Shown one piece after another: positions 8,715 to 62,986 of a stretch of DNA of 64,000 nucleotides (positions within the stretch are counted from its first letter, which is position 1; each line of letters starts with the position of its first letter). The notes under the pieces are model-generated. The model made no database searches. It was not told the origin of the DNA and saw only the letters and a list, made by a program, of their open reading frames with translations. This DNA comes from Paraspadella gotoi (taxonomy: Eukaryota > Animalia > Chaetognatha): assembly GCA_051294375.1 (NCBI GenBank), contig CM119271.1, positions 12,639,039 to 12,703,038 of the forward strand, written 5' to 3'. Both the position numbers and the translations under genes were made by a program.

Positions 8715-8976
8715 CCCTTCCCCTCGTTGGGTCGTGGACAAGTCGCTAAGTGGGATAAAGACCAATATCCGCAACTTCTTTAACCCCTCTAGCAGCCATG
8801 GAACGGGTCCTGGGCTTGGAACCAGGCTTGAGAGTTTTCCATCCCACCCCCCAAGGCGGTTTACGGCCGTCCTCACGCTTCCCGCAGGGTAGGTTCCATC
8901 GGGGATCGATCCCGGTACCTAACGGTCAAGAGCTGATGGTATTACTCAATGAGCAATTATGCAATGCCCGACTACA
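8715..8976 (-). mobile_element. Family C Pol III-box + twister repeat unit
   Basis: Duplicate of 1674-1932; homologous to 56660-56942. Confidence 0.8.
8796..8887 (-). ncRNA. Twister ribozyme, type P5 (family C)
   Basis: Minus strand ctgcggga-a-gcgt-GA-GGA-cggccg-T^AA-acc-GC-cttggggg..ctctcaag-cctgg-TTCC-AA-GC-ccagg-acccg-ttccatgg. T1 pseudoknot UCC/GGA; predicted cut 8863^8862. Confidence 0.72.
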
Positions 8977-9837: not shown

Positions 9838-10462
9838 GTTTATACCGGCACCGTCACATTTAAGCTAGAACCGGGATACCCAGGGATTGAACCCGGGACG
9901 CACGGATGGAATGAGATGATTTAGCCTGCTCAGCCATTGAGATGAGGCTGAGGAACGGACAGCAGTGAGGCAGCTTTAAGTCTTGCTGCCACAGGATCCC
10001 CCACCAGACTTCTCCACAGGGCCTCACAATCCTGAGGAGATGTCTGAGAGAAGGTTTTTGATCTCATTGCCATAGTGAGAGCGAGCGGGGAGCAGCGAGT
10101 CTGGAGCGTTTACCAGAGAAGTAGGGCATAGGCGTGATATGCATACCCTAAGCGACGTAAGCTGGGCGCACGTGCGCAGCGGTTGCGTGTTCGAGAGTCG
10201 GGCTCACCACTATGCAACGGGGGATAGCCTGTGATACCCGGGGCCGCGGGTATCTCACCAACTGGCGTAGGGGCTGCGGACCCTCAGTGACCGCCTCTGT
10301 CACTGGCATTTTATACCGCACCGGTACATTTAAGCTAGAACCGGGATACCCAGGATTGAACCCGGGAACGCACTATGGAATGAGATGATTTAGCCTGCTC
10401 AGCCATTGAGATGAGGCTGAGGACGGACAAGCAGTGAAGCAGCTTTAAGTCTTGCTGCCACA
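9838..10462 (-). mobile_element. Family A miniature non-autonomous LTR retroelement (TRIM/retrozyme-like): 5' LTR 10462-10211, internal region 10210-9994, 3' LTR from 9993 (cut short in the assembly)
   Basis: Direct repeats starting TGTGGCAGC with a 469-bp period. PBS-like TGGTGAGCCCGAC (10209-10197) and GGTGGGGGATCC before the 3' LTR. LTR matches the solo LTR at 29496-29750. Confidence 0.85.
10262..10338 (-). ncRNA. Twister ribozyme in family A LTR (noisy consensus)
   Basis: Homologous to 29620-29697. P3/P4/L4 intact; several apparent indels in the 5' half. Confidence 0.5.
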
Positions 10463-15379: not shown

Positions 15380-15445
15380 CAATTTTACCTTTGCAACAAC
15401 TCTTTACCAAAAACGCTGGACCGCAAGCAATTTGACTTAAATTCA

Positions 15446-15514
15446 TGAAATTAGATCAACCAATATAAAAATTATCCATTCATTTAAAAAATAAGTTATC
15501 TTGCCCCTGACTTT
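15446..15514. mobile_element. Family D MITE terminal fragment
   Basis: tgaaatt...aaaattatccattcattt...tatcttgcccctgacttt matches the TIR of 43439-43991. Confidence 0.7.
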
Positions 15515-19297: not shown

Positions 19298-19397
19298 NNN
19301 NNNNNNNNNNNNNNNNNNNNNNNNNNNNNNNNNNNNNNNNNNNNNNNNNNNNNNNNNNNNNNNNNNNNNNNNNNNNNNNNNNNNNNNNNNNNNNNNN

Positions 19398-19565
19398 CCA
19401 TTGATAGGGAAGCCATATACTCTGGGAGTGAATAAACTGGACTGTGAGAAAGTTCGCGATTGCAGGGTCCTGTAAGAAGATTGTGGCTTTAAACCAAAGT
19501 CAGTGACAAGATAGCTCATTAATTAGATGAAAGGGATAATTTTTCTATTGGTTGTATTATTTTCA
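19398..19565. mobile_element. Family D MITE right half
   Basis: Matches ~43798-43991 (cattgatagggaagcc...ctctgggagtgaataaac...caagatagct...tttcata). Confidence 0.75.
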
Positions 19566-19654
19566 TAAAAAATATCACACTCTCTTGATTTGATTATTCA
19601 TTTATTATTCAAATATTCATCTCCGGATAATTGACTAAGCCATCTCTGAAAGAC

Positions 19655-29006: not shown

Positions 29007-30985
29007 TTAGCCATTGAGCAAGAAGTACTTTGCCCTGCGATTAAATTCTTGGGCGTATCGAAGGTGCAGATTGTGTTTCCCTTGAGTCACATTGATCAAC
29101 TTGGATCCTTTGATGTTGTCACGAAGGAAGATCGGATGTTGAGGGTCGAGCATCGCGTCCTTTTCTCCGTGGACGATTAGGGTCGGACAAGCGATGTCCT
29201 TAAGCAAATCCTGGGTGAAAAGAGCCAAGTTAAATTAAATAATAAACAAAATCTAAAATGATTGTGCATAATCTTGAATTTATCATCCTGGTCAGAAGGA
29301 CGCCTTGCAACAATAGGTCAATACGCGACAGTAGCTGTCCAACTTGCAACAGAAACTTCTAATGTCAGGAACAAACTTGTGGAATCTCGATTGGATATTT
29401 GTGGATTTAATTTATTCATTGATTATTCATTGTTTCACCATTGATAATTATTTAATTGATTCGTTACTCTTTTCTCTCCTCAGTTATCATGAGTTTGTGG
29501 CAGCAAGACTTAAAGCTGCCTCACTGCTGTCCGTCCTCAGCCTCGTCTCAATGGCTGAGCAGGCTAAATCATCTCATTCCATCCGTGCGTCCCGGGTTCA
29601 ATCCCTGGGTATCCCGGTTCTGGCTTAAATGTGACGGTGTGTATAAACATGCCAGTGACAGGAGGCGGTCACTGAGGGTCCGCAGCCCCTACGCCAGTTA
29701 GTGAGATACCCCGCGCCCCGGGTATTACAGGCTATCCTCCCATTGCCATAAGTTAACGATTAATATTTTATAGCAGAGGTGTTGGGTACTTCTTCGTGTT
29801 TTCTTAGTGACCCCTTTGTGCTCACTAAGCTGTGGCTACTGATCTGGCAATGGTTCTAAATACAATAACAACAGTTAACGTAGAAAAAATTTTATTTCTA
29901 AGGCTTATTCCTTGAAAAAATCCATTCTTCAGGGCTTGATTACCATTTTTACGACATGAAAACAATTTTAAATATTGTTTACTGTTATCACTTTATTATC
30001 TTATTATCTTGTTGTATTCGAATAAAAACGCTTAAATAGTTAAGAGCAATGACTAAACTTGCAACAACAACAACAACCACTCACCTTGCAAAGATCCCCG
30101 TCTTTCCGCTCATGAATCGAATGATAGAAATCCACCCAATCGTTCCAATTTTTACGGAAGTAGGCCTCACCGTACAAATCGACCATCGGCTGACGCATCC
30201 TCTCCGACCATTTGTCAATGTCCCTAAAATAAAAAGGCGACATATAGGCCAGGATATTTATTGTATGAAAGGATAACACCAAATTCGCTAGCAAAATTTT
30301 ACCGCGCGCGTCGCAACTACAACAATCAACATCCCATGGCCCCACCTAACGGCCGCGGCGATCTTCAAGTCCAAATCGGATATGAAAGAGTTTGATCCCC
30401 AAACGACGAGTTTTCGCGTCAACTCGGGATGCTTGGCCGCGAGGATGAGGGCGGTGATCCCGCCGTCGCTCCAGCCCATCAGGGAGAAGGGCGTCAAACC
30501 GAGAGACTTCATGAGCGCGGCGGCGTCGTCGGCGTCGCGATGGAACACGTCGTCGGAAAAAGTGCGGTTTGGCGGACGGGAGAGGCCGTAGCCCTTTTTG
30601 GCGGGAAAAATTGTTGACGAGCGGAATCAGTTGGAGATTAGGAGGAGCGAATGTTCTCCTTCCGTCTACTGCGTCTACAATCTACTTTTCTATTTTCTCT
30701 CACCCTAGGATCCCAGGCCACTAACCCAAGATGAGGATCGTCTTTAAAAAGATCCAGTTGAGGACCAAAATCTGTCCTGGTCGATCCCAGAGCGCCGGGC
30801 AAGAGAAGGACCGGATGATCGCCCCGCCCGCTCGTCTCGTAATGGATCCGGACGGAATCGTGGCCCGGCCGCGCGGGCAGAGTAGTGGTCAAAGTTCTCG
30901 CGGAGCCGGCCGGAACGACGCCGGCCCGAGCGACGCCGGCAACGGGCGGGAGTTTAGAGAAAAATCCACTCAAAATGGCGGACAT
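29007..30985 (-). CDS. BPHL: Valacyclovir hydrolase / BPHL alpha-beta hydrolase
   Basis: VLLLPGALGSTRTDFGPQL, VAWDPR-GYG-SRPP, nucleophile motif GWSDGG, CPTLIVHGEKD, GKHNLHLRYA. Spliced. Confidence 0.93.
29552..29605 (+). promoter_or_regulatory. tRNA-type (type 2) Pol III internal promoter in the LTR
   Basis: A box TGGCTGAGCAGG at 29552-29563; B box GGTTCAATCCC at 29595-29605 within a T-arm-like stem (cccggg/cctggg). Confidence 0.7.
29620..29697 (+). ncRNA. Twister ribozyme, type P5 (family A)
   Basis: P5 ctggc/gccag; P2 acat/atgt; GA; T1 CCG/CGG; T^AA cut at 29644^29645; T2 GC/GC; P3 cagtgac/gtcactg; P4 aggg/ccct; L4 TCCG-CA-GC. Confidence 0.78.
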
Positions 30986-34747: not shown

Positions 34748-36309
34748 TCAGCTGTCCTCATCTCTAATATCTGTCCTCTCATAAATTCTTTGTAAAAAAA
34801 AACAAATTCGCTTTAGAGCCGAAACGTGACCCGTATATTTCACGTTCAAATAAATCGTTGTTTGTAAACAAAAAGTACAAATACGAAAACAAATCAATAT
34901 ATTCTCTTTAGGTTGAAAACAATTATAACAGAAGTGACAACTCCCACACATCCGATAATCTCACCTAAAAGAGAAGGGCCAATTGCCGTGGGTGTCCCTG
35001 GCGTCCATGAGCGCGTTGAAGACATGATTGAGCGGCATCGCGCGTCGCCCGTTGATTTTGAAGACGGAGTTGATGTCGAAGAAAGCGTGATTCACGCCCA
35101 AAGCCTTCAAGCGGTCCAGCTCGGACGAACTGCGACTGTAAATGTTTGGTCACGTGAAATGAGCGTTTCCTTTCGAATTTGGCGTATTGCCGTATTGCGA
35201 AAAACTAAACTAATATTCCCGATGTAAGATTTAAGGTTCAATTATTAACCGCTATCTAAATCTCACTTCTTACAAGCTCGTTTATTATTTACGTAATTAT
35301 TAATGGCGTATTATATATATGAAGCGAATTAATTTGTGGATTATTACAAATGGATTATTGCAAATTATTGCAAATACTATACCAAACAAAGGGACTCACA
35401 AAGAAATCATTCCCGGCAAAACGTAAACAGCGTCGTGACTATAAGAGGTCAAGGGATTCTTGGATTCGCTCGTCACGTAAACGATTTTCTCTTTGGGCCA
35501 CAAATCGAGAAAAGACTTTTCCGTCGTTCGCCACATGAAATTGCGAGTCAGGGGGTGATTGAGGAGGCCTGGGGAGGGGGGGAAGATTGGGGAGGGAGAG
35601 ACAAAAGAAGAGAAGGAAAACGAGAGAGAGAGAGAGAGAGAGAGAGATGGGAGAGATAGAGAAACAGAAAGAATAAGAAATAAAATTGGTACAACCATTT
35701 TAAAAATTATTCAATATCAATCCATTTAATAAATAAGCTATCTTGCCCCTGACAAGCTTGCAATCAAGACTATCTCACAGTCTCGTTTATTCACTCCAGT
35801 GTACCTGGCTTCCATATCAATAAAAGTGGTATAATATTTCAAAGAAAGTTTGAAAACCCCGACTATAAAGAAGACCAGGAGAAAATGAATCCATCCCGGC
35901 CGATTCCCTCCCCTTAAACCGCATCCCACCCCCCAGACTCCCCCCCTCCACCTTTCTCCTCCTCGGCCGTTTCCTTTCCAATGTTACAAAGATGGATGTC
36001 GTACGGCTCCCAGTGGCCGCGGTTAGAACTGTAAACGTCCATCATTTGCTTTAAAAAGTCAGACTTTTCCGAATCGATCATCTGTTAAAGAGGACGAGAA
36101 CATTTTGATAGAATAACATCGCGTACGGGCGCGTGCGCATTTCCACGGTCCGAACCCACCTCGTACGGACCTTTGTGCGGACGCCCATGTCGAAGACGAG
36201 GGGTTGACCGAAGTTGAGGGAGTAATTAAATCGAGTGAGATGAATCGAGTTGGCGCGGTTGGAGTTAACGGGTTTTGCGATTGCCTCGAATGAGAATTGT
36301 AAACTTTAT

Positions 36310-37342: not shown

Positions 37343-38671
37343 TTATTTCTTCTTCGGCGCCTGCTTCTCTTCTTCCGCCTTCTTCTTCGCCTTCATCACT
37401 CGGAACTTGTGAAGGCGTTTGTTGGCGCGGGCCTTTCGTAGCGTCTTAGAAGCGAATGATTAATAAAAGGTTAATCGAGATAATTTACTGAGAGAACTTT
37501 TAGCTTATTCATCATAAGAATAAATATCGTTCGTCTCGCATTCATCTATCAACAAAAACATCCGATCAATACAAATTAACGTTAAACGATGATCGAATTT
37601 GATAATTTAATCATAAAAAAAATGTCATTAATCTAATCGCAAACGAGTACAAAAATCAATTCGGAATGTTTCCCCCCAAAAAAATGTTTAACGAATTGAC
37701 CGACCGACCGACCAAATGTGGCCCCCCAAAAAACCTGATAAGCGGAGAATTTGGCCTCCTCCTCTAGGATTTCTCTCGGCGCCTCCGTCTCCTCCACTTC
37801 CGCCAGAGGGATGATCTCTTTCGATCGCAACTGAGTCGCCATCGACATCTCCTCCTTGGAAGCGTCGCCCTGGGGAGAGAGAGGGGGGAGGGAGGGAGGG
37901 GGGAATTGAAAAAGGGGAGGAGGTTGGAAGATAAAGAGATATTATAGTTAACTATTAAACCATTTTATCGTTTATTCATCTTAAATCGTAGATGAAGCAT
38001 TGACAAAAAGAAGGATACCCAACCTTGTGAGGGTGAGAGAGTTTCTTGGGGAAGAGGATGAGTTTGGATCGATATTCTTTGAGACGTTGAACGTTTTTCT
38101 GCAAAGACTCGATGCTCTTGTTGCGTCGGCGATAATCTACGGCGATGCCGATGGACCTATGTATAATCAGGGTAACCATCATCACAACAGAGATATCCCT
38201 CTGTTAGACCTCAACTCGTCATCGAGGAGATTCGTTAATTGAGCGCGTTATTTCAATTATTTCAATTATTTCAAGTAATTTGAATTATTATATGTATCGA
38301 AATCCATTTTAACTTACAACAACAACAATTCCCCGATAAAATATTTAAAACTGAATAAACTGACAAACGTTTAAACAACCAAAAGAGGCCCTCCGGTACC
38401 TCGCAAAGTTCTTGTTGAGACCCGCGGCCTTGATCTCCTCCAGACTGAAGCCGCGCCCGAGACGCTGCTTCTTGTTGTACTTGATGGTCGGACAACGAAC
38501 GATGGGTCGAAGTTTGGAGAGAGGGCGTGGCACAACCTTGGCCGCTTTGGCGCGACGGGCGTTCTTTCTCCTTACTTTGCGCGCGGGCTGATCGAACCAA
38601 GTCTTGACTCGGTTCTGCCAGTCTTTCTTGAAATGCGCGTTCTGAATCTGGTTGTTGTGTTTGGGAGCCAT
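37343..38671 (-). CDS. RPL13: 60S ribosomal protein L13 (eL13), 4 coding exons
   Basis: [32 protein letters not shown]...[13 protein letters not shown] / [36 protein letters not shown] / ...FSAYQ / [11 protein letters not shown]...KKK*. Confidence 0.98.
37446..37515 (-). ncRNA. Candidate intronic C/D box snoRNA in the last RPL13 intron
   Basis: Box C ATGATGA. The 13-nt TAATCATTCGCTT is antisense to the conserved LSU rRNA AAGCGAAUGAUUA and sits just before CTAA, a non-canonical D box overlapping the 3' splice site. Confidence 0.3.
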
Positions 38672-40399: not shown

Positions 40400-41637
40400 A
40401 AACTGGAGGAAAAGTAAAAGTAAAAGTTTTCATAAGTCAACGCAGAAATATGTCACTATTATTAATTTGATTTTCGAGAATCCACATCAGTAAAGAGTGG
40501 AATAAACAATCACAGCATCTTCATTTCTGAAAAATGATATCTTTTCCAAGGCTTTCATTAAATATGAGCAACAACAAGAATCACATTTGGGTTTTGTAAG
40601 ACTTTCTTCTGGTGACTCAGTTATTAGAAAATTCGATTCTCTTTCAATGAATATTTAATTCTAGAATCGCAATACTAAAAAAAGGCGAAAACTATTTTTC
40701 AAGTTGGAAAAAGTTAAAAATGTAAAGCCAAGTCGAGACAAGAAGCGGACAAAAACTTTGGACGCAACTTTAAATATCCAACTTAAAATAACACAACACG
40801 CGCAATCATACCAACATCCTCTCGGTAAAATATTGAAATAATAGAGACATTGAGGAAAAATTGCAAAATTGCAAAACTGCGCAAAGTTATAAGCGTCGAT
40901 CAAAACGACCTTAAAATGTAGTTCATATTTGATCGAATTAATTTTTTGTCGGGGGGGGGGGAAAGAGGCGCGGGATGGGATCTAAGAAGCCCCCAAATGT
41001 TAAGAGACCTGGTCAACAGATTAAATGTCAGATTCAGTCAAGCTTTAACAAATTATATGAGGTCGAGCACAAATAAACAAAAAATGGTGGTGAATAATCT
41101 GATGGATTTAACGTCTAAAATATATTTGGTTGATTCTAATTCACATGAGAAAGAAATCGAGTATAACCGAAATATAAGCACACAATGTGGTCGGCGAATC
41201 GATGGGGTTCCCATCCTTTTCAACTTCTCTTTTGGGTTTTCATCCTTTTTCACTATTACTTTCAGTATCTATCTCTAATGTAGTAGTTTTTATCTCCTTT
41301 ACATTTCAAAAGACCAAATCCAAATGCAGCAAAGACCAAAAAAAAAAAAAAAAAATTCATTGATTATTCATGATTAACAAAAAGAGACAAAAAAAAATCA
41401 AAACCAAAACTCGTAAAAAATACTGTAAAAACATAAGAACTCTAGTGTCTCCCCCCCCCCTAAAATCGGCATTCCACAGTTCTTTTTTTTTTTTCAGCCA
41501 ATCAAATTCGTCCCTTGTGGCGGTATATTCACTCCGCCTCACATCCACCATCTGTCAGCCAAATCCATTGGCTCAGAGGGGGAACACACCATCCCAGGCG
41601 TAGTGTTCCATCCACAGTCCTAACGACTTCCCTCTGC

Positions 41638-41718
41638 GTTGGCAAAGCGAGACCGTCCTAGGGTAACCGCGCCAGTGACTGGAGGCGTCACTGAGGGTCG
41701 GAAGCCCCCAAAGCCAAC
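41638..41718 (+). ncRNA. Twister ribozyme, type P5, in the 5' LTR
   Basis: P5 gttggc/gccaac; P2 (c)cgc/gcg(a); GA; T1 CGG/CCG; T^AA cut at 41664^41665; T2 GC/GC; P3 cagtgac/gtcactg; P4 ggg/ccc; L4 TCGG-AA-GC. Confidence 0.8.
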
Positions 41719-42125
41719 AGTGAGATGCCCCATCCCAATGGGCATCACAGGCAACCCGGCTGTTGCCATAAGTGGTGAGCCCTACTATCGAACACGCAAC
41801 CTTCTCAGGGTACGCTATGACAAACGCCTATGCCTGCCGACTTTGGGTACGCTACGACAAACGCCTATGCCCCTGGGGTACGCTACGACAAACGCCTATG
41901 CCCCCACAACTCGCGCTCTCTCTCTCTCTCCCACTATGGTAACAGTCTTGTCAGACACCTCTCAGGCTTGAGGAACCTGAGTGATGTCTTGGCCCGGGGA
42001 TCCTGTGGCGGTATATTCACTCCGCCTCACATCCACCATCTGTCAGCCAAATCCATTGGCTCAGAGGGGGAACACACCATCCCAGGCGTAGTGTTCCATC
42101 CACAGTCCTAACGACTTCCCTCTGC

Positions 42126-42205
42126 GTTGGCAAAGCGAGACCGTCCTAGGTAACCGCGCCAGTGACTGGAGGCGTCACTGAGGGTCGGAAGCCCCCAAAG
42201 CCAAC
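42126..42205 (+). ncRNA. Twister ribozyme, type P5, in the 3' LTR
   Basis: Same as the 5' copy except P1 is tcctagg; predicted cut 42151^42152. Confidence 0.8.
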
Positions 42206-42286
42206 AGTGAGATGCCCCATCCCAATGCGGCATCACAGGCAACCCGGCTGTTGCCATACCCTTTTTTTTTTCTCGAATCATCCCAA

Positions 42287-45200
42287 TCACGAACCCTGAT
42301 ATCCGATCGCCGAGAGAACGACCTCGTCCCCATCGTCGGTGACTCTGCTCGATGGTTTCGCCGTCGACGAGTCGGACTCTCTCGAGGATCCGATGCCGCT
42401 CGTTCCGTCTCCGCTCGACGCCTTCAAGAAGACGACGAAGTCTTCCTCCTCTTCCCGCTCCACCTCCTCGAATTCGAAGCCTTTGAATCGGTTCGTCGGA
42501 GATTCCTCCAACATCATCCGGTCGATGGCGCGAATTCTGAAGACGACGAATCCAACGCAGAACGCGACGAGGGAGACGACGATGACGACGACGACGACGA
42601 CGACGGAAATCGCGACGACGGGGATTCGCGTCGGGGTTCGAGCTACGACCGGCGATGACCAACGGCCGACGCCCCAATCGTTGAAGGGCCGAACTCGAAA
42701 GGAAAATTCGACGCCGGGATCAAGATTCTCTGCCGTAAAACGGCGCCGGTTCTCCCACGGTTTCGATGGCGTGAAAACTTCGCGGCGCCGGATTTTGTCA
42801 GACTTGGTGACTATCTCGAACGAGAGACCGGCGCCGCGTAAATCGCAAGAAAAGGCGTCCCACGTGAGCGAGACGGCGTCATCGGCGATCGGTTCCGCCG
42901 CCACCGAAAAGCTCATATTCCCCGGCGGCGTCTTTTCTCGATAGACGCAGGAATCGCGTCGTCGACGGAATCTGTTTTCCTCGAGGGCGTCGTCGCAATC
43001 GAGCGGAACGTAGGCCCACTCGCGGTCGATGACATCGCCGACGAAGATCGGGACGTCCTCGTCCGGCCGCCGGACGAAGGTCTCGGCGTCGACGCAGTCC
43101 GAACCGCGTTTCCGGCACGTGATGACGCGATAGAGGCGGCAGGGTCCAGGGTCTCGTCTCATTTCGATCCACGCGACGGAAAATCCGATGGAATTTCCGA
43201 GTCTCGTCACTTTCATGCGTCGATCATCTTCGCCGACGAACGAGAGAGAGAGACGCAGCGGCGAAGACGGCGGCGAGCGGCCGGCGGAGTTGACGCTTCG
43301 GAGAGTCAGGTTGGTCCATGGAGGCGTGGAGGATGGCGCCTGTAAGAGATGAATTGAGTTGCTCAATATTATTTGCATGCGGTCTTGTTGGCGTTTGAAA
43401 GATTTAATTAATTAGGTATTTACGGTCTAAAACTTTTATGAAATTGGTACAAACAAGATAAAATTATCTATTCATTTAATAAATAAGCTATCTTGCTCCT
43501 GACTTTGGACAGGCTTTGAAGGTTCAAGGCCTCCATCACTCTTACCAGATAATGACGTTGCAGGACGCTGCAAGCTTTCACACTGGTCATTGGAATACCA
43601 ATTGATCACAATATTTGTTAATTATTGAATTAAATTACATAGTAATATTCATAGTCATATACTGAAAATTAGGATTCTGGTGAAGAACTTATGATCCAAA
43701 AGTTCAATGCTTCCTTAAACGGCTCTCGCTTAATTCAGTCTACCACATCTTGTAAGACATGCTTCCCTTTCATCAAATCAACAAAAATATACCACTTCAT
43801 TGATAGGGAAGCCAGGTACTCTGGGAGTGAATAAACGAGACTGTGAGAAAGTCTTGATTGAAAGCTTGCAGGGACCTGCTATGTTATTATCTTGTAAGAG
43901 TGATGGAGGTCTTAAACCACCAAATTCAGGGGCAAGATAGCTTATTTATTAAAAGAATGGATAATTTTTTATATTGGTTGTACCAATTTCATACATGTAC
44001 TCTAATATTCTTATAATATAATAAGTTAAGTATTACTTAAGACCCTCTTAACACACCGTCCACGAAAGACGATGAAGGCAGCGCCGGTAGCACGAGCGAG
44101 GATGAGAGAGAGCCGCGACGCCGGCGTCGATGACGAATTCCGTCAAGACGCCGTTTGTCTCGCAAGTCGGAGGATCGAGGACGTAGAGAATGAGATGAAC
44201 GACGCCGCTCAAAGGATCCGCGTCTGTCTCGAAGGCCACGAAATCCGGCGCCGTTCGAGGCGGCGCCTCCGCGGTGAGAAAGGAAAGAACGACGGGCGAA
44301 CTGGGGAATCCCTCGGGTCCGGAGATTGTCCGGAGATTGGCCGAGTAGTCGACTCCGGGAACGAGGTCGTCGACGGCGGCGAAGGTCGAGTCCGAGACGG
44401 CAACGGAGGAATTGAGACAAGACGACGTCAGCGAGACTCGAAAATGATGATCGATTCCAAATCGATCCAATATTTTGTTTCGTCGCCAACGGAATTCCGC
44501 TCGAGTCTTCGAGACGTCGACGACGACGAAACCTTCGGCGGGAGAGGGCGTCACGAGTCGAGAAGGCATCGCCAGACGAACATCGCCTGTCAGATTCAGG
44601 CCCGCCGCCTCGACGATCCATCGGAATCGCATGACTTCGTTTTGCGCGAAAGTGAAGACGCAGTTTCGATCCCGCGGCGTCGGATTAAGTCCGAGTGTTG
44701 CTTTTAAGTCGACGGGGTTGTCGGCAAGAGTTTCCCCCGAAGAAGGGTCGAAGGCGCATCTGAATGGCGGCGCCGAGCTGCTGTTCAAGTTGCGGCCCTC
44801 CACGAAATACTCGATCGAAATCTCTTGGGCTTCGGGAAAAGGAAAAGCGAGAGTTCGAAAGACGATTCGTTCAAAGTTGTCGACGAGCAACTCGAGCCGC
44901 GAGGATTTGAGAGAGAGAATCCGTATGGAGGCGAGGATTGGGTTACATCCGGAAGAAGGGCTAGAGTAGTATCCGCAGTAGAGACGATCCACGCGGCTTT
45001 TCCCGCTACATGCGGGTTGAAACCGCGCAACGACGGATGTGGGCGTGGCGTCGACGGACACGAGGGCCGCCTGACGCCATCGACATTCGAAACCGAGGGC
45101 GGAGGCATTCTCAGCGGATTGAATGAGGGGGATCTGTCAGGGATTGTTCAATTGTCAGTTTTAGTTGTTTACATTTTAGTTGACATATAAAAGTCACAAA

Positions 45201-45802: not shown

Positions 45803-48802
45803 TTGATAGATACCCTGTGTCCGTTCGAGAGTGACACCAAAAAAATCTTTACTCTACTTTGAATATTTAATAAACATAATTCATAAGTATATCATTAGTT
45901 TAAGAACTACTTGACGTTTTTTATGTCCAAGTTTCATTTCGTGTTTAATTTATTTACTATTCTTTGTTTAAATTTTTATCTAACACAGTAAAATTGGCAA
46001 AAAAAGACCATTTTTGGCGTGTTCTTGAGATTTTTTATTTATTTTTTTAATTGTAAATCTTAAGTTTTTTTTATATAATTCGTCCAATTAGAAGAAAATG
46101 CTGTCCTGAACATGTTTTTGACTGTTTTGAATAATTATTTTATATCGTAAGGATTCCTAGATAATTCTTAATTTAATGGTGTAAACGAATTTTAATAATT
46201 TTAAGTATTTAATGAGTAATTAATTTATAATATTTTTTTTAAAAGATTCTGTTTTTTACTGAAGATGAAATTGGATGACAATTTAAGAAAAGTTTTTTAC
46301 ATAAGTAAATATCAAATTAATCTTATGAAATTAAAATATAATAAACGTCCAGTACTTTGCTACTGAATGAGGAAAAAAAATTTTAAAAATATTTATCCAA
46401 TGAGAAATGATACGCATATTTTTGGAGTCACTCGCGAACGGACACGGGGTAGATAGATCGATCCGCCCGATCTAAACCTGCAACATCTCGCCGAGTCGAA
46501 AACTCGGTTTCCTCACATTGACGAAAAACGAGTTCGTATCGAGTTTCGCCGCTCGAAGCCCCAACCGTTTGATCTTCGCCGCTTCGGCGGCGAGGAGGCG
46601 TTGACCGCTGAGAGACCGCCAGGAAAAAGAAAAAGAGTTTGACTCTCTCTCTCTTTTAATCAGAATACGACAATATGACGATATCTCAATTCAGATAATT
46701 CACAAATTAATCTGCTACATCTCTCTCTCTCTCTCCCTCTCTCTCTCTCCTCTTACCCTCCGCTGTGAGCGCCCATGACGAGGACGTCGTCGTGGCGATA
46801 TTCCTTCAAAGGCTCCGTCGCTTCCGTCGAGAGATACACGATTCGATCCGAGGGAAATTCTTGGGAAAAAGGAAGAGGAGTCGTCGACCAAACTTGGTTC
46901 CTCGTTGATGGGTGATGGAGGAGATTGAGGTGGTCTGTGGGGGGGGAGGGGGAGAGAGGTGAGGGGAGGGAAAAGGGGAAGGAGAGGAATGAGGGTTTAA
47001 CTAAATGATTCTGGCTGCAGAGTTTTTGGTATAAAATTTTTTTCCAGAGAACAAGAGGCACGAAGACAAATTAAAACAAAAGGTACCAATTTAACGGGTA
47101 CATACGGGATCGTTTACGGTCAAAGTTGGTCACTAAAACAGTTTTGTAGAGTAATTGACTGCGTCGCTGTTTTCGTCGTCGTTTTAACCATCGTCTTAAG
47201 ATATTTCAGCTGATAAAAAGAAGGCATTCATATTTCTCCCACGAGTTCGAACCTTCCCGGTTTTCGTCGAAACCGCAGAGCACAATGTTGAAGGGTTCCC
47301 ACAATGATCGGTTGACGGCGTAGAGTTCCATCAATGGTTGGAGGATGGAAGCGAAGGAAGGAAAGTTCAAATCGAGAGCGATGGTCTGGAAAAGAGAGAA
47401 CACAACTCCGAGGAAGAGTCCATCGGTTTTGACTCTTCCCTCTCCAAGGTTCATCAAGCCATCATGGGACTTATCTAGCGTCAAGAGACTAATACAGCCT
47501 TCAATCTCATTTAGCCAGTTCAAATGTAATCTTTTCCATACTTTAAATAAGCATACAATACTTTGCAGTCTTTTGTTCTTTTATACACCACCATAGATTT
47601 GATCACAGGCATACCGTAAGCGAAGCTATTAAACCGCTGGACGAGTGATACCAATTCCCAAGTGACTATCCCAGAGCCTCGGAGCGAACGCGGCAAATTG
47701 CCCAACCCATTATGGCACTCATGACCTCTCCCAAAAACTTCTCCCCCACGCACTCTCACCTGGCCGAATTTCATTGCGAAATTCATTCGGTGATTGTGAA
47801 CTTTTCTCGCGTAGTTTGAATCGAGTTTGGGAACGATGACGAGCGGAGGTCCGATCGGACTCACGCCTGATTCAACGAAAATTGCTTTTTTTTTGTTCAC
47901 CGGTGAATCTCCTCGACTCTGGTTGAGATCGAATGGAAGGAGAGAGAAGAGTCGTGAATCCTTTTGTTTTCGCTTTGACCGGTGAAGTCGGGTGAATAAC
48001 GTGACTCACCGCGTTCGTCGTAAATCTCGCCGCGAAAATTCTCTTTCATTCTTTCTCTCGTTCTTTTTTCGATGGTTTTCGTTCGATGCTCGGATTGATT
48101 AGAATTTTCTTCTTTTCTGAAATGAAAATCGAAATTGAAATCACAAGCGATTCGTCCCTCGTTCACTGGCGAGTATAACGACGGAGGATAGATAAGGTCG
48201 TCCTCTGTCATCCTTTAAATCGTCTTCTGTCATCTTTCGACGTATTCTGTCATTCTCTATCATCCTCCATCGTCGTTCTCTATCCTCCGTCATACTCGGT
48301 GGTCCGAGGACGTCCTCTATCATCCTTTCAATTGTCTTTTGTCATCTTCAAACGTTCTTCGTCGTCATCCTTCCCGGTTCGTCGTGGTCCTCCACCAGCC
48401 CTTTAGAACCTGAGTTCGTTTCTCTTCTCCATTTCCGCGAAGTTTCGGTACAGTTTCCTTCTTCGCTCCGACGACGTCTCCGCTTCGAGCTGAAAGAGCG
48501 AAAACCAAATTCCAAATCGATCGATTGACTTTTTCACTTCACCTTCGTCTCACCGTTTTCCGCATTTTCTCGGTGAGTTTCCAAGGGACGTCGGCGCCGA
48601 CGAAGCGTAAATAATCCAGGTCCAACTCGAGATTCGATTCGCCTCCGCCGAGATCTAGCGAGTCCGTTTCGCGGGGACCGAGTCGCTCATTTCCTTCGAC
48701 TTTCGATCCCAATGTCCGAAAGGATCGTCTCTGTTGACTTTTTACGATTCGACGCGATACCAGCAGAAAGTTGGACCAAATCCTTTCCCTTCCGACGATC
48801 AT
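45566..48802 (-). CDS. TRMT10C/MRPP1-like, paralog 2 (divergent), ~8 exons
   Basis: LDYLRFVGADVPWKL; RMNFAMKFGQ-TIALDL; MELYAVNRSLWEPFNIVLC; FPSDRIVYLSTEATEPLKEYRHDDVLVMG; VLADARDTDGNWFYAF. Confidence 0.75.
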
Positions 48803-49254: not shown

Positions 49255-52200
49255 CTAAGAAATCGAACCTTCTTCCCCTCCTCCTTCTCTCCCGTCCTTC
49301 GCTTCTTCCTCCTTCCTCGCCTTCTTCCCCGGTTCTTCCGAATCTCCTCCCCTTTCCTCCTCCCCCTCTTCTTCCTCTTCCTCTTCCTCATTTTCCGGCG
49401 AGTTCCTCTTCAAGGGCGGCTCCCCCCTCTCTTCCTCGCCCCGCCTTCCTTCTCCTTGGCCCTCGATCGCCCCCGAAGATCTTTTTCTTTTCAACGGCGA
49501 CGACAACGACGACGCCGAAATCGAATCCGGCGACGACACGAGCGCCGTCGGCGCCGCGACGGACTCCAACGGCGGCTCCGGCGTGGAAATTTGCGCCGTC
49601 GACGAGGAAATTGGCGCCGACGACGCCGATTCTTTATCGGAGATCGAAGATTCGTCCTCTCGCGGGGTCGAATCTGTTCTTGAAGGCGATGACGAGTCCA
49701 TCGACGCCGTCAACTTTGTCGACTCCGCTTCGGCGTCGGTCTCGATCGATTCCGGTTTTGTCGGCACAGATTCCGCCGCAGCCGCCGCCGCCGCCGCCGC
49801 CGTAGATTCCGGCGTCGACATCTGTTCGCTGGTTTCCTCATTCCTTGCGTCGATCGATGCGGCGTCGGCGGCGTCTTTGCTCGTCGTCGCCTCGGCGTCA
49901 TCTTCCATCTCATCGACGCCGGCGTCGTCCAGCGGCGTCGCCCGATCATCTCTTCGCGTAGAGTCGGCGGCTTCGTCGTCTTCGGAGAAGGGGGCGGGAG
50001 GAGCAGCGGACGACGCCGCGGGAGCCGCTGACGGCGTCGCGGAGGCAGCAGCAGACGGCGCGGCAGGGCAGGCGTCAGTTTTGATAACGGAGATCGGCGC
50101 CGGTTTAGTTTCGTCGTCGGGTTTTTCATGAAGCGGAAGATGAGACTCTGGAAAAAGCGGATATGTATTAAAATTAATATAAATTATATAAAATAAAAAT
50201 TGGTTAAATTAAAAAAAAAACTTTCCAACCGGAAGTTGATGAGGATGAAGATTCTGTAGACGCGCCGGCGTCAGCGACCGCAGCTGAAGCGTCGGTGGCG
50301 GCGACCGCGGCAGCGGGAGCGGCGGCCAAGACAGTTGCGGCCGCAGCAGCAGCGGCTGGAGCGTCCGCGGCGGCTGAAGCGGCTGAGGCTGTCATCAGCG
50401 ACTCATCGATGGGCGCGGGGGGAGTCGAGACGGCGGGCAGTGCGGGGCTGACCGTCCTTACAATGCGGACGTTTTTCTCGAATCCGCGCAACAATTTGTC
50501 GATTCGTTTGTAATATTTCTTGGGTTGAGTCAAAAGTTCGCAGAGACGCTGTAAAAAAAAATATATATAATAATTATGTCAAGATAGAGGCTCACCTTAC
50601 CGCCAGAACCTCTCTCTCCCCCGGGCCTTCTCTTCCCCATTACATACTTACCCTACTTACCTCTTTCCCTGATGAGAGACTAGTTAGTACCTACCTTTAG
50701 CTAGATACCCATCTTCCCAGTATGTATTTATCTCTTTCACTTTCTCTCTCCCTCTCTCTTTTTCTCTCTCCCTCCCTCCCTCCGCCATTCCTCTCTCTCT
50801 ATTTCCCGCTCACTCACTCTCTCTCTCTCTCCCCCCCTCCAACCTGAATGGTGAATGGAATCCCCTGAAAATTATTAAGCGCAGTGACGATTCTTTTCTT
50901 CATCTTAAGGATGTGAATCGCGCAGCCGTCGTTCCCGTCGCTGGTCAGAGGTGACCCGTCGCTCGCCGACACCTGGAAATTCGCAAGACGCAATTTAAAG
51001 TCAATCTTGGGGAAAAAATTCGATCGGCTGAAAAAAATTAAATTAAATGAAGAAGTTTGAGGCGTTGAACGGCCCTAAATTTTTTTTAAAGGACGCATTT
51101 CCAAATCTAAAACAACTTAATAATATTAGTAATATTTTATAAATTATGCCAATTTTTGTTTAATTAAAACAGTACTGCACAAGTAATAAATACATTAAGC
51201 ATCTTATATTGCTCAACAATTTTAATTAAATATTTCAGATGTAAAAAGAAAAAAAAACAAAACAACGAACATACCCGACCGATCGACCAAAAGATTGAAA
51301 GATTCCTACCTGAATCTTTTCTTCGAGGAAACTGAGGTCTTCCTCCTCGTTGGTGATCTCCTCGACGACCTTTTCCAACTTGAGGACGACCAAGTGGCGC
51401 AGCTTGGTCCATGGCAGGCATGGCCAGCCTGATATGAGAGGATGGGGGGCAGTTAAGGATACGGGAGAAAGAGGTCAGGATGACCAAGTGGCGCAGCTTG
51501 GTCCATGGCAGCATGCCCACGCCTGATTATGAGAGGAGGGGGGGCAGTTAAGGATACGGGAGAAAGAGGTCAGGATGACCAAGTGGCGCAGCTTGGTCCA
51601 TGGCAGCATCGCCACGCCTGATTATGAGAGGAGGGGGGGAGTTAAGGATACGGGAGAAAGAGGTCAGGATGACCAAGTGGCGCAGCTTGGTCCATGGCAG
51701 CATCGCCACGCCTGATTACGAGAGGAGGGGGGGGCAGTTAAGGATACGGGAGAAAGAGGTCAGGATGACCAAGTGGCGCAGCTTGGTCCATGGCAGCATT
51801 GCCACGCCTGATTATGAGAGGAGGGGGGGGGCAGTTAAGGATGCGGGAGAAAGAGGTCAAGAAGGAAAGGTAGGTAAAAAATGTTTTGAACTAAATAGAA
51901 GATGATAAAAAAAAATGTTGCTCATCTCTCTCTTTAGTTGTCCACAACCCGAACCCCCTGAACGAATGCCGAACAGACGAACCTGTTTTGGCGATCTCCT
52001 CCAAGTATTTCTCGAGGATGTCGGGGATCCCGACGCGCGGCGCTCCCACGCCGTTCATCTCGATAGAAGAGGGAGGCGCGTCTTCCATCTTTCCCTCTTG
52101 AGAAAAAAAAAGTGAGACTTTATGAATATATATTATATATATAATTTATATATATATGAAGGCGACCTTCCTACGAATATCAAAATCCTCCGCTAATTCC

Positions 52201-53054: not shown

Positions 53055-54497
53055 CGTCTGTCGGGCCAATGGGGAAGTAGTGGGCGTGGCTGACAACCCG
53101 GCGTCGCCGCTTTTGTTTATTATTTGTTTGTTCGTTTTTTTTTTTATCGAGGAACTAAAACTTCATAAAAACACAAATAAATGGTAAGCGGAGTTAAATA
53201 ATTTTTTGTTTTTGTTTTAAGGGTCAGTCTCGACTGAGTAACAACTAGTATAGCCAAGGGTACGAGGCTTTCGAAAGTGCGATAACAAAATAGTAACGAG
53301 GATACTACGCTAGGACACAGACATTGAAACGGGTTGGCTTTTTTTTTTATTTTGTTTTTTTTTTTGGAGATGGGGTACACGAAAAAAATCAAGAACCTTA
53401 GGCTATTTTTTAGGACCTGAAGAATTCAAGCAATCAACTAAATGCAAGTAATGGCACTTAAGGGAAATAATGAATCGATTTCGATATATTTTAGATTCGT
53501 TTGTTGGTTTAGAGCAGACAGTTAAGATACTAAATATTCCCTGAGAAAAATTTAAAAATTAAGAAATTTTTTTGGTTTCTTTTTGTTTCGAGTAACACTT
53601 GACCTTAATGTCCGAGTTGTTATTGATATATATTATATAAACTTTTATTCACGAATGAGCATCACTACATTAAAGACTAAAGAGTTATCGAAATAACCTT
53701 TTCATAATTTTTGATTTTGATGATTGGAAAAATATCATTTGCAAGGAACCTCACATTTTCAAGTAAAAATTAGCGTTACACAGAGTAAAGCGATAAAAAA
53801 AAGAAGAAAAAAGATGAATTTCTATTTATTAGTCTATGACATAGTCGTAGATCACATAAAAATAACGGTTAAGAAATAAAACGTTAATGAGTGAGATTCT
53901 CTCGCGCCCAATATTACGCTATTTTCCAATGAGGCGACGAAATCGATTCGTTATTTCCCTTAATTCAAAAAGTTTCAATGTATAAGAGAGAGAAAAATGA
54001 GATAATCATGGCAATTTTTTTTATTTCACGAATCACGAATCGAATGTATCATTCATTCATCATTCATTCATGTATCATTCATTCATCATTAATTCCGTGG
54101 GAGATCTTTTTTTCAAGATTAAGCGACACGAAGACCTTTTTAAAACTCTCTCTGAAAATATTAACATCCGATCGAATGATCATATTGACCTCAATTCAAA
54201 AGCTCACGTAACCTTTCTTGTCCGTCAAACAGGAAGTAGGGCACTTTCAAATTCAATGTAAGCGAAAGAAAACTTTTCACTTCTCTTTTGTTAGTTACGT
54301 CTGGAGGAAAGAAACGATGGAAAATCATCAACAGCTCAAAAAGAATTATATTTTGTGAATAAGGTTTCTTTTTGGAATTAAAGGATTTTAATTTCATTTA
54401 AATTTATAATCAATCTGCTACCTATCGTTTGACCCTTAAGAATTAATAAAATATCAGTATAAATTACTAAATACATCTATTACATGTAAACCACCAA

Positions 54498-54575
54498 AGC
54501 CTGTCCAAAGTCAGGGGCAAGATAGCTTATTTATTAAATGAATGGATAATTTTTATATTGGTTGTCCCAATTTCA
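54498..54575. mobile_element. Family D MITE terminal fragment
   Basis: ccaaagtcaggggcaagatagcttatttattaaatgaatggataatttt...ccaatttca. Confidence 0.75.
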
Positions 54576-55218
54576 TGAATAAGGATTTTACAATAATGAA
54601 ATTTTTCATGCGCATGTGCAGACCACAGGAGACGCAAAATTCAACATTTACGAAGACAAAAAAAAGCAAACCGATGATTTTGTCCGACTCGTTTCTTTCT
54701 TCGCCGCTAGAGTTAGTCCTACTCTTTCACTCATTAAAACAAGACACGTTTCTTTCCCTCATTTTTCGTCCATCTTTTTAAAAAATAACTAACAATCGAT
54801 AGAGACAAAATGAAAAGGGAAAAAAAAAGTCGTAAATGACGGTCAAAGTGACGAGTTTCAAAAAAAAACAACAACAAAAACTTTCACGCACGGATATACC
54901 TCATCAAAATATACGACGCGACGTTAAAAAATCCCGTAAACGACTAGTGGAATTTTGTTTGTTTGTTTTTTGTTTTGATAGACAGACGATTATAAATATA
55001 TCGTGGAAAAAGAAGAGTCAAGATGCATGGGTTGGTTTTTTTTTCTCGGAGGGTGAGGGGGTAGAGGGGGGAAAAGAGGGTGTTTTTGAGGGGGAATTTG
55101 GTTGACTTTTTTTTTTTTTGGTCGAACTCGTGACTAGCGATTTGGACATCTAAACGTAGCAACGGAACCACGCCACCCCCCCCCAAAGCCCATCCCCCTC
55201 CCACATGGAGGAGCCACT

Positions 55219-57858
55219 TCAAGCGGACAAATCGATCTGGTCGGGAGGTCGTTGATGGCGAAGTATTGATGTCGAATGTCTTCGTCGAGAACGCGGACGA
55301 TCCTCGCGCCCGAGACGTCTTTCCCCAATTGAGCGCCCACCGCCGACGTCACGATCACCTGCCAAGAGAAAAACGCCAATTCGTTCGTCCAATCCAAAGA
55401 AGAGGATTTTTTTTTTTAAAGTCAACGCGAGACGGACGAACCTCCAAATCGCCCATTGCGCGCCCTCCCGCGTTTCGATGGTAATGCCCGCAAAATATTT
55501 TCCTGATGAAAAAAAGATTTTGATCCGAAGCTCAGGGGGACTGCTTATATTTGAACGGTTCCGTCACTGACACACAACAATGTCTCCAACACAATTCATT
55601 ACCGTCTCTTCACCTTCTCGTTTAAAAACGAGTTAATTTTAACAAAAACTCTAAATTAAACTCGCACCTAATAACCTATAATCAATCGGACCTGATGCCG
55701 CCCCGGTACAACTTTCTGAGCAGAGGCGTCCTTCGCTCCGACGGAAGATTAAAGTAAAGATCGTCGGGTTCTTCTGGATCCGCGAGGAAAGGAGGGATAT
55801 GCATGAACGCGACCCGATGTCGGGGTCGAGCCGAGGAAGCGGAGTCGTCGTCGTCGTCGTTGACTTGAGGGGCCTCCGAGGGGGCCCCGTCCGAGGGGGC
55901 CTCCGAGGGCGGACAGGATAAAGTTTTGTTCAGCCAAGATTCCTGCTCTTTGGCCAAAACTGGGACGAGACTGGGATCCTTGTAGTACTGCGGGAGATGA
56001 ATGAATTAGAAAATAAATCAATTTCAAAATAAACTTGAGTAAAAGCTAAGCGAGATGCCTAGTAACTCGGCAAAGTATTTGGGAAAACAAACTTTCGATA
56101 AACCGTTGGATTTGATTCTAATCCGTTTTCATTTACATTTTTGACTAATAAAACATTACTCTTCATTACGTTTAATTAGTAATTATCAACTGTCGTTTAA
56201 TAATAATTTATCCTATTCTTTTTTTTCCTTTTAATTCAAATCGCGTTACTTTATACTTTTCCGTATCAGATCAACTACTCTCTTGGCTCTTACAATGAGT
56301 ACTATATGTATTTAGTTCCGCTATTCATTAAGCATTTTTTCGCTTGGATTTACGATTCCCGATGCCCGTCTGCTTAATCCACTGACAAAGACCGACCGAC
56401 CAGACCTGGGAATTGACGACGACGAAGTGGACGCCCGCGACCCAAAACTCGAAGTAATCGTCGCCGAATTCGTCCGTGTATCGCTTGACGTCTTTGGGAG
56501 TTGGACGGTCGCCGACGTCGTGATTGCCGCAGACGCAAACGACCGGGATGGAAGGGTCCAACGCCGTCAGGGTTTCTGAGAGGTGAGGCCATTTGAATGG
56601 AGGTAAGTAAAAGGGATCGTGAAAGAGGAAAAAGGGAGTAAGTTAGCGCCTTATCCACACCCCTTCCCTCTAAGTGGGCTGAAGATGACTATCCGTAACT
56701 TCTATAACCCCCTTTAGTAGCCATGGAACGGGTCCTGGGCTTGGAACCAGGCTTGAGGGGTTCCCACGCCCCCCAAGGCGGCTTACGGCCGTCCTCACGC
56801 TTCCCACAGGGTAGGTACCGGGTTGGGATTGAACCCGGTACCTAGTGGTCATGAGCTGATTGCTTTACTCAATGAGCCACCGGGTAGGGACTGAAGGTGT
56901 CATGCTTATAGGCGGGGTGAACCTAGGCAATGCCCGACTACAGGGGTTAAGAGGCCGAGGATGACTTCCGTAACTTCTTTAATCCCTATTTAGCAGCCAT
57001 GGGAACTCGGGCTTGGAACCAGGGCCTCTCTGTCCCCCCCACCCTAGGCGGTTAACGGCCCATACAGAAATATCCGGGTTAAAAGAAAGGTTAGAGACAA
57101 AGTAAAAAAAAAAAAAAAAAGAAAGGCGAGTTGGAGCAAATTAAGCTTAACGACGAAATAGTAAATCTAAACTAAATCTTTATTTCTCACTCTTGAAATC
57201 CTTTTCCTGCTCCTCCCTCCTCGGATCGTCCCAAGGGAAAGAGTCGACCAAATCTCCGCAAATGACGAAGAATTTGGGTTTCGGTCTCATCGCGTTGATT
57301 TTGGCGATGAGTGCGGAGAGGAGCTCGATCTCCGCTTGCCATCCTCCAGTCTTGATCGTCTCAACGTCGTTTATGTCTTCTTTGAAACTGGGAGAGGAAG
57401 GGGGGGGAAATTGAGGGTAGATGGAACTCCGCGCGGGGATTGGTCTCTCCATTCGTAATGTTAATGTAAGAGCGTAATAAACCAGAAAAAAAAAGCCTTA
57501 TATTAATACAGAACATAAACCAATGGGACATGAAATAATTTACTTCTATATGCAAATTAGATTGATGAATTCAATCTCATGTACGGTGTCATTTTAAGAA
57601 TCTAACTCTTACATTATCGGACTGACTGACAGACTGCTCTGATAAAAAAATAATTGAAAGAAAAACTATCAAATCGTCATCATCATCATCATCATCATCA
57701 CCACATTCACATCCAGACCTTTCTATCATCCCGAACTGCGTGTCCGACCCTTGAACGAAGAAATAGGGCTCCAGCCATTGACCCTCTTCTTCGAAGGTCC
57801 ACCCTTCCAGCCCGCGGTCGCGTCCCTTCTTGATGACGAGGTCACCGGATGACGTCAT
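55219..57858 (-). CDS. CPPED1: Calcineurin-like metallophosphoesterase CPPED1
   Basis: FFVQGSDTQFGM; PKPKFFVICGDLVD; VCVCGNHDVGDRPT; FMHIPPFL; FCGHYHRNAGG; VTSAVGAQLG. The end is uncertain because of a frameshift. Confidence 0.93.
56660..56942 (-). mobile_element. Family C Pol III-box + twister unit (most complete copy) in a CPPED1 intron
   Basis: TGTAGTC start; A box TGGCTCATTGAG (56879-56868); B box GGTTCAATCCC (56835-56825) in a 13-bp stem taggtaccgggtt/aacccggtaccta; twister follows. Confidence 0.85.
56721..56809 (-). ncRNA. Twister ribozyme, type P5 (family C)
   Basis: ctgtggga-a-gcgt-GA-GGA-cggccg-T^AA-gcc-GC-cttgggggg/cccctcaag-cctgg-TTCC-AA-GC-ccagg-acccg-ttccatgg. Cut at 56785^56784; P2 is imperfect. 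Confidence 0.72.
56943..57061 (-). mobile_element. Diverged partial family C unit in tandem, starting near the twister cleavage site
   Basis: Minus strand ggccgttaaccgcc...cctggttccaagccc...ccatggctgcta...taaagaagttacgga.gtcatc, directly abutting the TGTAGTC of the next unit. Confidence 0.7.

Positions 57859-58368: not shown

Positions 58369-62986
<4,618 letters not shown>

Follow-up and report, generated by a model that had tools for sequence, protein, structure and literature searches.

Twister folds in both LTRs of a miniature retrotransposon of the arrow worm Paraspadella gotoi: a candidate twister-based LTR retrozyme

Can a long terminal repeat (LTR) retrotransposon of an animal process its RNA with a twister ribozyme carried in each LTR, in the manner of the plant LTR retrozymes with their hammerheads? 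The question is raised by a 743-bp element at positions 41516-42258 on the forward strand of a 64,000-nt stretch of the genome of the chaetognath Paraspadella gotoi. The whole stretch is called the window below; the family of the focal element is called family 1, and two other repeats of the window families 2 and 3. A first-pass annotation had proposed a non-autonomous animal LTR element with a conserved twister fold, permuted in the P5 order, in each LTR, and this proposal is supported by the anatomy of the element and by covariation. On sequence grounds the twister fold in each LTR is well supported, and the element belongs to a mobile, young and abundant family of mini LTR retrotransposons. 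That it also works like a twister version of the plant elements, by way of a circular RNA and a helper of the CsRn1 clade, is judged slightly more probable than its opposite.

The two LTRs, at 41516-41770 and 42004-42258, are each 255 bp long and have TGTGGC...GCCATA ends. They are 99.2% identical over 256 columns, two 1-base indels being the sole differences, and their ends and coordinates are as first annotated. The same is true of the 4-bp target-site duplication, CCCT, which is present at 41512-41515 and 42259-42262, the right-hand copy continuing into a flanking T10 run (42259-42271). Between the LTRs lie a primer-binding site (41773-41805), a non-coding internal region with three repeats of about 27 bases, one CT run and no T4 run (41806-41995), and a purine tract, GGGGA (41996-42000), that is followed by TCC (through 42003); the eight bases preceding the 3' LTR are identical in families 1 and 2. 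The earlier account of this internal anatomy stands for the primer-binding site, while the purine tract amounts to merely five bases. The longest stop-free frame wholly within the element is 115 amino acids.

At LTR positions 18, 38 and 39 both LTRs of the focal copy carry family-minority letters, which argues that both were copied from one template. The two indels between them may be assembly errors, since the extra C at 42228 in the 3' LTR is rare among contigs and the window contains poorly polished sequence. Positions 1-4573 and 6921-12010 are near-duplicates (94-97%, 7 kb), and a stretch at about 2690-3290 is riddled with deletions. The duplication probably reflects a haplotype that was not collapsed, or else poor polishing, and single-base indels in the window may for this reason be errors.

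The mobility of the family is seen in contigs from public runs. In one run (X1), from which the window itself may derive, 9,137 contigs aligned to 41216-42558, with loose ends before the LTR starts (at least 36 contigs at 41515 and at least 18 at 42003) and behind the LTR ends (at least 85 at 41770, at least 113 at 41771 and at least 18 at 42259). The agreement among these loose ends is just 0.43-0.47, arguing that they belong to unrelated flanks, and more than 100 distinct flanks were counted at the 3' end of the family in this one run. A run from a second study (X5) has loose ends at both LTR borders as in X1, and one from a third study (X9) has them at the 3' border, 41770/41771. The depth of contigs over the internal part was about 1,300-4,200x that of the 3' flank in X1 and X5, a ratio that is not a copy number; in X9, like X10 tentatively taken to be an RNA run, the depth is similar over both flanks, and no conclusion about expression was drawn. 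A run from another organism (X10) contains two contigs, one of them spanning 41580-41834 with two differences, on which no interpretation is placed.

Which element might supply the proteins? The primer-binding site resembles the complement of tRNA-Trp and the CsRn1 consensus, and 11 of its first 13 bases equal the tRNA-Trp complement of Fig. S2 in PMC10886601. The match is prolonged by some 20 further bases, as it is in family 2 and at a metagenome locus (L001). These long sites (41773-41805 in the focal element, 10181-10209 on the reverse strand in family 2 and 227-264 in L001) read about 30 bases into the complement of the tRNA T-arm, with a 3-base gap in the extended sites of the window relative to L001. 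From its sequence, the extension may hold the tRNA primer more firmly than a site of the customary 18 bases would. CsRn1-like gypsy elements have TGT...ATA or TGT...AAA ends, a TGGTGAG/CCCC tRNA-Trp primer site and 4-bp duplications (PMC2582038). The focal element has all three traits, its ends being of the TGT...ATA type, and these point to a gypsy element of the CsRn1 clade as the likely helper. The LTR length of the focal element also lies within the range of this clade of Ty3/gypsy elements (PwRn1, AgCR; PMC2582038), from which it differs in having neither gag nor pol.

The helper was not found within the 64-kb window, where TGGTGA(C/G)CC sites occur once per strand, both inside elements of families 1 and 2. 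Decayed pieces of retroelement-like open reading frames (ORFs) are present at 18360-19475 and 47206-48005, and weak aspartyl-protease matches at 19071-19295 (best E 0.002) fall under the cut-off; these pieces give no sign of being the helper. A search with the primer-site pattern returned one locus, L001, in metagenome contigs and none in viral contigs. L001 is an unrelated fragment whose sole likeness is the extended primer site, and neither a ribozyme nor a tRNA gene was found in it.

On the 5' side of the ribozyme, each LTR carries motifs that resemble the internal promoter of tRNA genes. In the 5' LTR these are an A-box-like motif (41569-41580) of the TRGCY type, which recurs in families 2 and 3 and is the predicted promoter for RNA polymerase III (Pol III), and a motif like a T-arm or B box with a 3-bp stem and a 7-base loop (41603-41615); a second set lies in the 3' LTR. 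Family 2 has canonical boxes (GGTTC, 31-base spacing), family 3 also has GGTTC, and Rfam gives no tRNA match in the focal LTR.

The type-P5 class of twister ribozymes was reportedly described by Roth et al. in 2014. In the first LTR a fold of this order spans 41638-41718 on the forward strand. It was located by a descriptor and its pairs were assigned by coordinates; a partial Rfam twister-P1 match covers some of it. P5 pairs 41638-41643 with 41713-41718, P2 pairs 41647-41650 with 41667-41670 (one C.A), and P4 pairs 41694-41697 with 41706-41709 (one A.C), while P3 is formed by 41673-41679 and 41687-41693. The two pseudoknots are T1 (41653-41655 with 41699-41701) and T2 (41671-41672 with 41704-41705), the core GA is at 41651-41652, and the U/AA cleavage site is at 41664/5. 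The second LTR repeats the fold at 42126-42205 with U/AA at 42151/2 and, in the assembly, a 7-base linker between T1 and the cut. All the core residues (U/AA, GA, GC and U...AAGC) are present in P5 order. The first-pass annotation was right about the order of the segments and about the two U/AA sites, which are spaced 487 nt apart; its prediction that a double cut leaves a 487-nt RNA without terminal redundancy agrees with the LTR coordinates.

A descriptor of the P5 order, loosened to accept the 3-base P2 strand of family 3, finds six matches in the window: both focal LTRs, a solo LTR of family 2, two copies of family 3, and one antisense match within a family 3 unit. The same descriptor gives two matches in 60 shuffled windows and none in 5000 shuffled LTRs. 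Pairs were counted by coordinates, as MAFFT misaligned family 3. All five pairs of T1 and T2 are Watson-Crick in each of five copies (two focal, the family 2 solo LTR and two of family 3). T2 is invariant. T1 reads C-G/G-C/G-C, C-G/C-G/G-C and U-A/C-G/C-G in the three families, and both sides of each of its pairs have changed from one family to another; changes on both sides are also seen in P2, P4 and P5. The outer helices are paired at 3/4 (P2), 3/4 (P4) and 6/6 (P5) positions in the focal copies and at 4/4, 4/4 and 5/5 in family 2. The focal P4 is AGGG/CCCC with an outer A.C mismatch, and the C.A mismatch of the focal P2 adjoins the cut site. The compensatory changes that had been claimed are real for T1 across the three families; the P4 pairing aggg/ccct is that of family 2 rather than of the focal element, and P2 is poor in family 3.

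Conservation within family 1 was assessed from the LTR positions that vary in at least 5% of the contig depth, a test that rests on one variant table. Sixteen positions vary: none of 74 in the ribozyme outside L3, two of seven in L3, none of 23 in the A and B boxes (0/12 and 0/11, respectively) and 14 of 151 elsewhere (Fisher p 0.0017).

Family 2 is represented by the solo LTR, at 29496-29750 on the forward strand, with an AGTT duplication and a fully paired twister fold (29620-29697), and by a two-LTR element at 9838-10462 on the reverse strand, which has the same primer site and an incomplete second LTR. In the low-quality duplicate at 2690-3150 this second LTR is complete, with a CAGT duplication on both sides. 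The incomplete LTR at 9838 stops close to the predicted cut site, but the idea that it records a cleavage event was discarded: a TATAAAC microhomology links it to a 106-bp duplication of the flank, and the duplicate locus is complete. When families 1 and 2 are compared by blastn, the alignment is confined to the stretch from the ribozyme to the primer site (78% over 134 bases).

Family 3 is built differently: its unit begins TGTAG and has a head resembling a tRNA, behind which comes a twister-P5-like fold whose linker is CGGCCG. A full unit lies at 56672-56942 (reverse strand); further copies lie at 8745-8975 and 1705-1932 on the reverse strand, and a 5'-truncated one at 56953-57060. Its Rfam matches are below threshold and extend over the full length of each model, with 16.6 bits for twister-P5 (E 0.53, gathering score 37.6) and 14 bits for tRNA (E 5.7, gathering score 29). 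T1, T2 and P4 are fully paired, and the 5' strand of P2 has three bases and is poorly paired. Since neither a target duplication nor a primer site was found for it within the window, family 3 is not established as an LTR element. At 57060-56672 a partial unit, which starts some 7 bases ahead of the predicted cut, directly abuts the full unit, in the sense orientation within an intron of a host gene. From the translated exons this gene is presumably phosphoesterase-like.

P1 departs from its usual form. The focal copy has, in place of a P1 hairpin, a self-complementary 8-base linker (41656-41663) for which no hairpin is predicted when it is folded alone and whose self-duplex is computed at -11.0 kcal/mol. 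The linkers of families 1-3 are all 6-8 bases long and self-complementary, with a sequence that differs by family and self-duplexes of -10.7 to -11.3 kcal/mol, and in the alignment of family 3 to the Rfam P5 model the loop of P1 has length 0. In the focal copies P1 could consist of at most two base pairs closing a loop of four bases, for which the model charges 1.0 kcal/mol, so that they may also cut as monomers.

These features suggest a life cycle. Pol III would start at about 41555-41560, directed by the boxes of the 5' LTR, and would read into the flank, where the T10 run would stop transcription of the focal copy. Cuts at 41664/5 and 42151/2 would remove the tRNA-like leader and the trailer, yielding the 487-nt RNA. 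Since the element contains no T4 terminator, the 3' end of the RNA would be set by the second ribozyme whatever the flank. Twister cleavage leaves 5'-OH and cyclic-phosphate ends. RtcB circularised retrozyme RNAs in vitro with yields of 30% to >80% (PMC7229834), and the 487-nt product would likely be ligated into a circle, whose junction would look like an intact LTR in contigs. Reverse transcription on such a circle, likely by the CsRn1-clade helper and primed by tRNA-Trp, would run from the primer site across the junction and produce one full LTR, making the first strand jump unnecessary. The other LTR would then be rebuilt with the purine tract and an ordinary second jump, and the integrase of the helper would insert the product.

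The linkers allow an additional step, about evenly balanced between yes and no, in which those of the two LTR copies pair together and create two strand-swapped cores. Each swapped core would combine the 5' half of the fold in one LTR with the 3' half of that in the second, and one of the two cores would be formed by the two ends of the product. If so, only transcripts with two LTRs would cut well, the ends of the product would be held by P2 and P5, and the lone ribozyme remaining in the circle would be slow. A much broader generalization can be ventured only tentatively, and is rather more likely wrong than right: that animals have LTR retrozymes that are Pol III-driven, tRNA-Trp-primed and replicated by a circular-RNA route, with the ribozyme varying (twister in arrow worms, hammerhead in gall wasps), and that the arrow-worm twisters cut solely as a strand-swapped pair. 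Were this true, the pairing would act as a check that releases full-length RNA only, clamps the ends for ligation and leaves a circle that hardly cuts itself.

A number of observations weigh against a working ribozyme and a circular intermediate. The Rfam scan of the 64-kb window returned nothing at gathering score, the twister-P5 model gave no match in family 1 or 2 at E up to 10, and at the Rfam thresholds one refuting condition set by the first-pass annotation, the absence of a covariance-model match, formally holds, the best scores being 15.2 bits of the required 67.2 (twister-P1) and the 16.6 bits of family 3. The twister-P1 match is found in both focal LTRs and aligned to the P3-P4-L4 half; family 2 has no Rfam twister match even below threshold, and when four stretches of the window were scanned against Rfam by E-value, weak twister matches alone came up. 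The missing threshold match is read as poor model coverage because the weak matches coincide exactly with the predicted segments. The focal family also has its two C.A mismatches, and no paired variant is listed at 5% of the contig depth. In tested natural type-P1 twisters, in favour of the fold, P1 is reported to be dispensable and defects in P1 and P2 are tolerated, while pseudoknot defects are harmful and an A.C in P4 was mildly so, reducing cleavage by 0.14, a value for type-P1 forms only (PMC11662667). In the conservation test the 52 bases on the 3' side of the ribozyme are likewise without variants (0/52) and all 14 of the outside variants lie 5' of the ribozyme, so that the deficit may partly reflect a 5'-to-3' gradient. 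The B box of family 1 is atypical, with TGTTC rather than GGTTC at 23 bases from the A box.

Predicted RNA structure adds further points on this side. Nested folding favours the circle model for P5, P2 and P3, whose pair probabilities in the circle are 0.68, 0.73 and 0.67, but P4 reaches just 0.12 even there. In the precursor the twister helices have probabilities of 0.01-0.26, with the top value for the P5 that joins one end of the product to the other. The stability of the predicted circle is not out of the ordinary (z -1.3, from 40 shuffles), and 56% of it is paired, compared with a reported pairing of more than 70% in the RNAs of animal retrozymes (PMC4918200). Cross-pairing of the linkers in the precursor was below 0.001, in a nested folding that leaves pseudoknots unmodelled and uses the 7-base linker of the second LTR, and for the linker in the solo LTR of family 2 the computed self-duplex is unstable (+3.3 kcal/mol). 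Finally, an uncut Pol III transcript would have a long terminal repeat and could replicate in the ordinary way.

This last point is the core of the rival explanation that survives best, although it is held to be distinctly less probable than not. The element would be an ordinary Pol III-transcribed terminal-repeat retrotransposon in miniature (TRIM) resembling Helenus, replicated from an uncut, redundant RNA, and the twister would act slowly or partially, trimming read-through 3' ends or limiting the amount of RNA, with no circle formed. An uncut RNA from about 41558 to the flank would have a terminal repeat of about 210 bases, which suffices for a normal strand jump; the low predicted folding of the twister in the precursor points the same way, and most Helenus LTRs displayed in the supplement of PMC10886601 lack a ribozyme motif, as judged partly by motif search. 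On the other hand, the fold is the same in the two LTRs, and cutting in the second should go with cutting in the first unless the folding differs, and the compensatory upkeep of both pseudoknots across families would be costly to explain if cutting were marginal.

It is less probable still that the twister is a dead or dying passenger, brought in when a tRNA-headed, twister-bearing unit like a short interspersed nuclear element (SINE) or a Penelope-like element was captured into an LTR, to which it gave a promoter; family 3 may be such a unit. Capture of a SINE has indeed been proposed as the origin of such LTRs (PMC10886601), and the two fixed C.A mismatches of the focal family, the poor P2 of family 3 and the sense-oriented position of family 3 inside a host-gene intron would all fit this reading. 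A dying passenger should not, however, be the best-kept part of the LTR, as the ribozyme half is, given that blastn aligns family 1 with family 2 from the ribozyme to the primer site and nowhere else, and the core residues are all kept, with the variants in L3 and none in the core. That an LTR rich in G+C and prone to hairpins resembles a twister merely by chance is very improbable, even though the Rfam scores are far under threshold, the descriptor was loosened and the family 1 and 2 covariance model missed family 3, given the counts in shuffled LTRs and windows and the two-sided changes in a 3-bp pseudoknot in three families.

A covariance model made from three sequences of families 1 and 2 recovered these families only, a profile hidden Markov model search also recovered copies of families 1 and 2 and not of family 3, and the ribozyme pattern gave no loci in metagenome contigs and none in viral contigs.

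An ORF for a fibronectin type III membrane protein lies on the opposite strand at 42287-43411 and 44048-45136 (Pfam fn3, E 1.3e-08), and the focal element lies 25 bases beyond its stop codon. The element is probably antisense within the 3' untranslated region of this gene, where its ribozyme would not cut the mRNA. An RPL13 exon at 38399-38671 (reverse strand) has its closest named match in Spadella cephaloptera (90%), with nine more matches at 85-91% and the remaining named ones at 72% or less, which makes a chaetognath host likely. At least seven pieces of one AT-rich dispersed repeat are scattered in both orientations (15441-15514, 19399-19572, 35680-35833, 43435-43580, 43788-43993, 54489-54582 and 61203-61322). 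At 51383-51862 there are five tandem units of about 95 bases with CTGATGAG, the matching second half of a hammerhead being absent.

How does the element compare with known systems? Among ribozymes, its fold follows the type-P5 twister (Rfam RF02684) in the order P2'-GA-T1'-P1-UAA-P2-GC...P4-U-T1-AAGC-P4', closed by P5. It differs in P1, which in RF02684 is a stem with a 14-position insert and here is a self-complementary linker of 6-8 bases, in its long P3 and in its eukaryotic retroelement setting. Twisters are known at the 5' ends of RTE elements (PMC7761336), and in the Perere-3 T-variants of Schistosoma a twister likewise processes retroelement RNA, in that case a non-LTR element with a single twister at its 5' end (PMC8501958). 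Penelope-like elements and amphibian retrozymes carry weak-helix hammerheads that cut as dimers (PMC7761336, PMC7229834); they are non-LTR elements, and if the palindromic linker enforces pairing, the focal ribozyme would be their twister analogue.

Among retroelements, Helenus/TRIMp3 (Kojima 2024, PMC10886601) resembles the element in layout, with a short TRIM form, tRNA-like A- and B-box motifs in the LTR (those of the focal element only box-like), 4-bp duplications in animals and a gypsy-type primer site; the focal length of 743 bp fits the range of 311-1263 bp. The Helenus box consensus is TRGCY...YGG for box A and GGTTC for box B, from which the focal B box differs. Pol III transcription of Helenus is itself an unvalidated proposal (PMC10886601); the lack of T4 runs within the focal element would agree with such transcription. 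In its accessible text that paper covers six animal phyla, chaetognaths not among them, has ribozymes in a reference title only and does not mention twister, and a motif search of the LTRs displayed in its supplement, where not all places are displayed, found no twister-like L4. Two LTRs in its DataS1, Helenus-2_SyJa-LTR and Helenus-2_SyUm-LTR, nevertheless contain, on visual inspection, what looks like a complete type III hammerhead immediately 3' of the B box: a GUC site, stem I, CUGAUGA, stem II, GAAAC and stem III. Its loops 1 and 2 could pair along some 12 complementary bases. These two Synergus Helenus-2 families are the Trp-primed ones and have the tRNA-like part early in the LTR; their internal regions contain T4 runs, of which the focal one has none. 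From their sequence, the gall-wasp Helenus-2 elements are candidate animal LTR retrozymes with a hammerhead. The case may already be known to the group of PMC7761336, who refer in passing to forthcoming work on type III hammerheads in insect elements.

The first-pass annotation knew of no described twister-LTR retrozyme, and none turned up in the literature searched. In its openly accessible parts, the literature on retrozymes, twisters and TRIMs (including PMC6765202, PMC5680766, PMC10085705 and PMC13570524) yielded neither a twister in an LTR element nor a ribozyme in Helenus. The words "ribozyme" and "twister" are absent from the main text of the chaetognath genome paper (PMC12460157), and "twister" from the accessible portion of a preprint on retrozymes (10.64898/2026.07.22.740005). 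The element would join two literatures, on Helenus/TRIMp3 and on retrozymes, that do not cite each other on their overlap.

The element also parallels the plant LTR retrozymes (Cervera, Urbina and de la Pena 2016, PMC4918200; PMC7761336). Both are non-coding and have a ribozyme motif in each LTR, a 4-bp duplication, a primer site and a purine tract, together with solo LTRs, a presumed gypsy helper and a cut-to-cut unit without terminal redundancy. The plant elements have a type III hammerhead, a tRNA-Met primer and a unit of about 600-1000 nt, whereas the focal element has a twister fold, a tRNA-Trp primer and a unit of 487 nt, as well as an animal host, tRNA-like Pol III boxes in the LTR and a predicted circle that is less self-paired. 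RNA and circles have been demonstrated for the plant elements and are predicted for the focal one. No hammerhead was found in the window by Rfam or by descriptor, and the element would operate in the manner of the plant LTR retrozymes while falling outside that group in the strict sense. A July 2026 preprint (10.64898/2026.07.22.740005) divides retrozymes into two kinds: those with LTRs, which carry type III hammerheads and occur mainly in plants, and those without, which carry type I hammerheads and occur mainly in animals. An animal LTR form built on twister fits neither of these pairings. It would show that a circle-based LTR cycle depends on the cut and not on the hammerhead, would give the P5 permutation of twister a natural role, and would be a natural counterpart to the engineered circularisation of RNA by tandem twisters (mentioned in PMC7229834).

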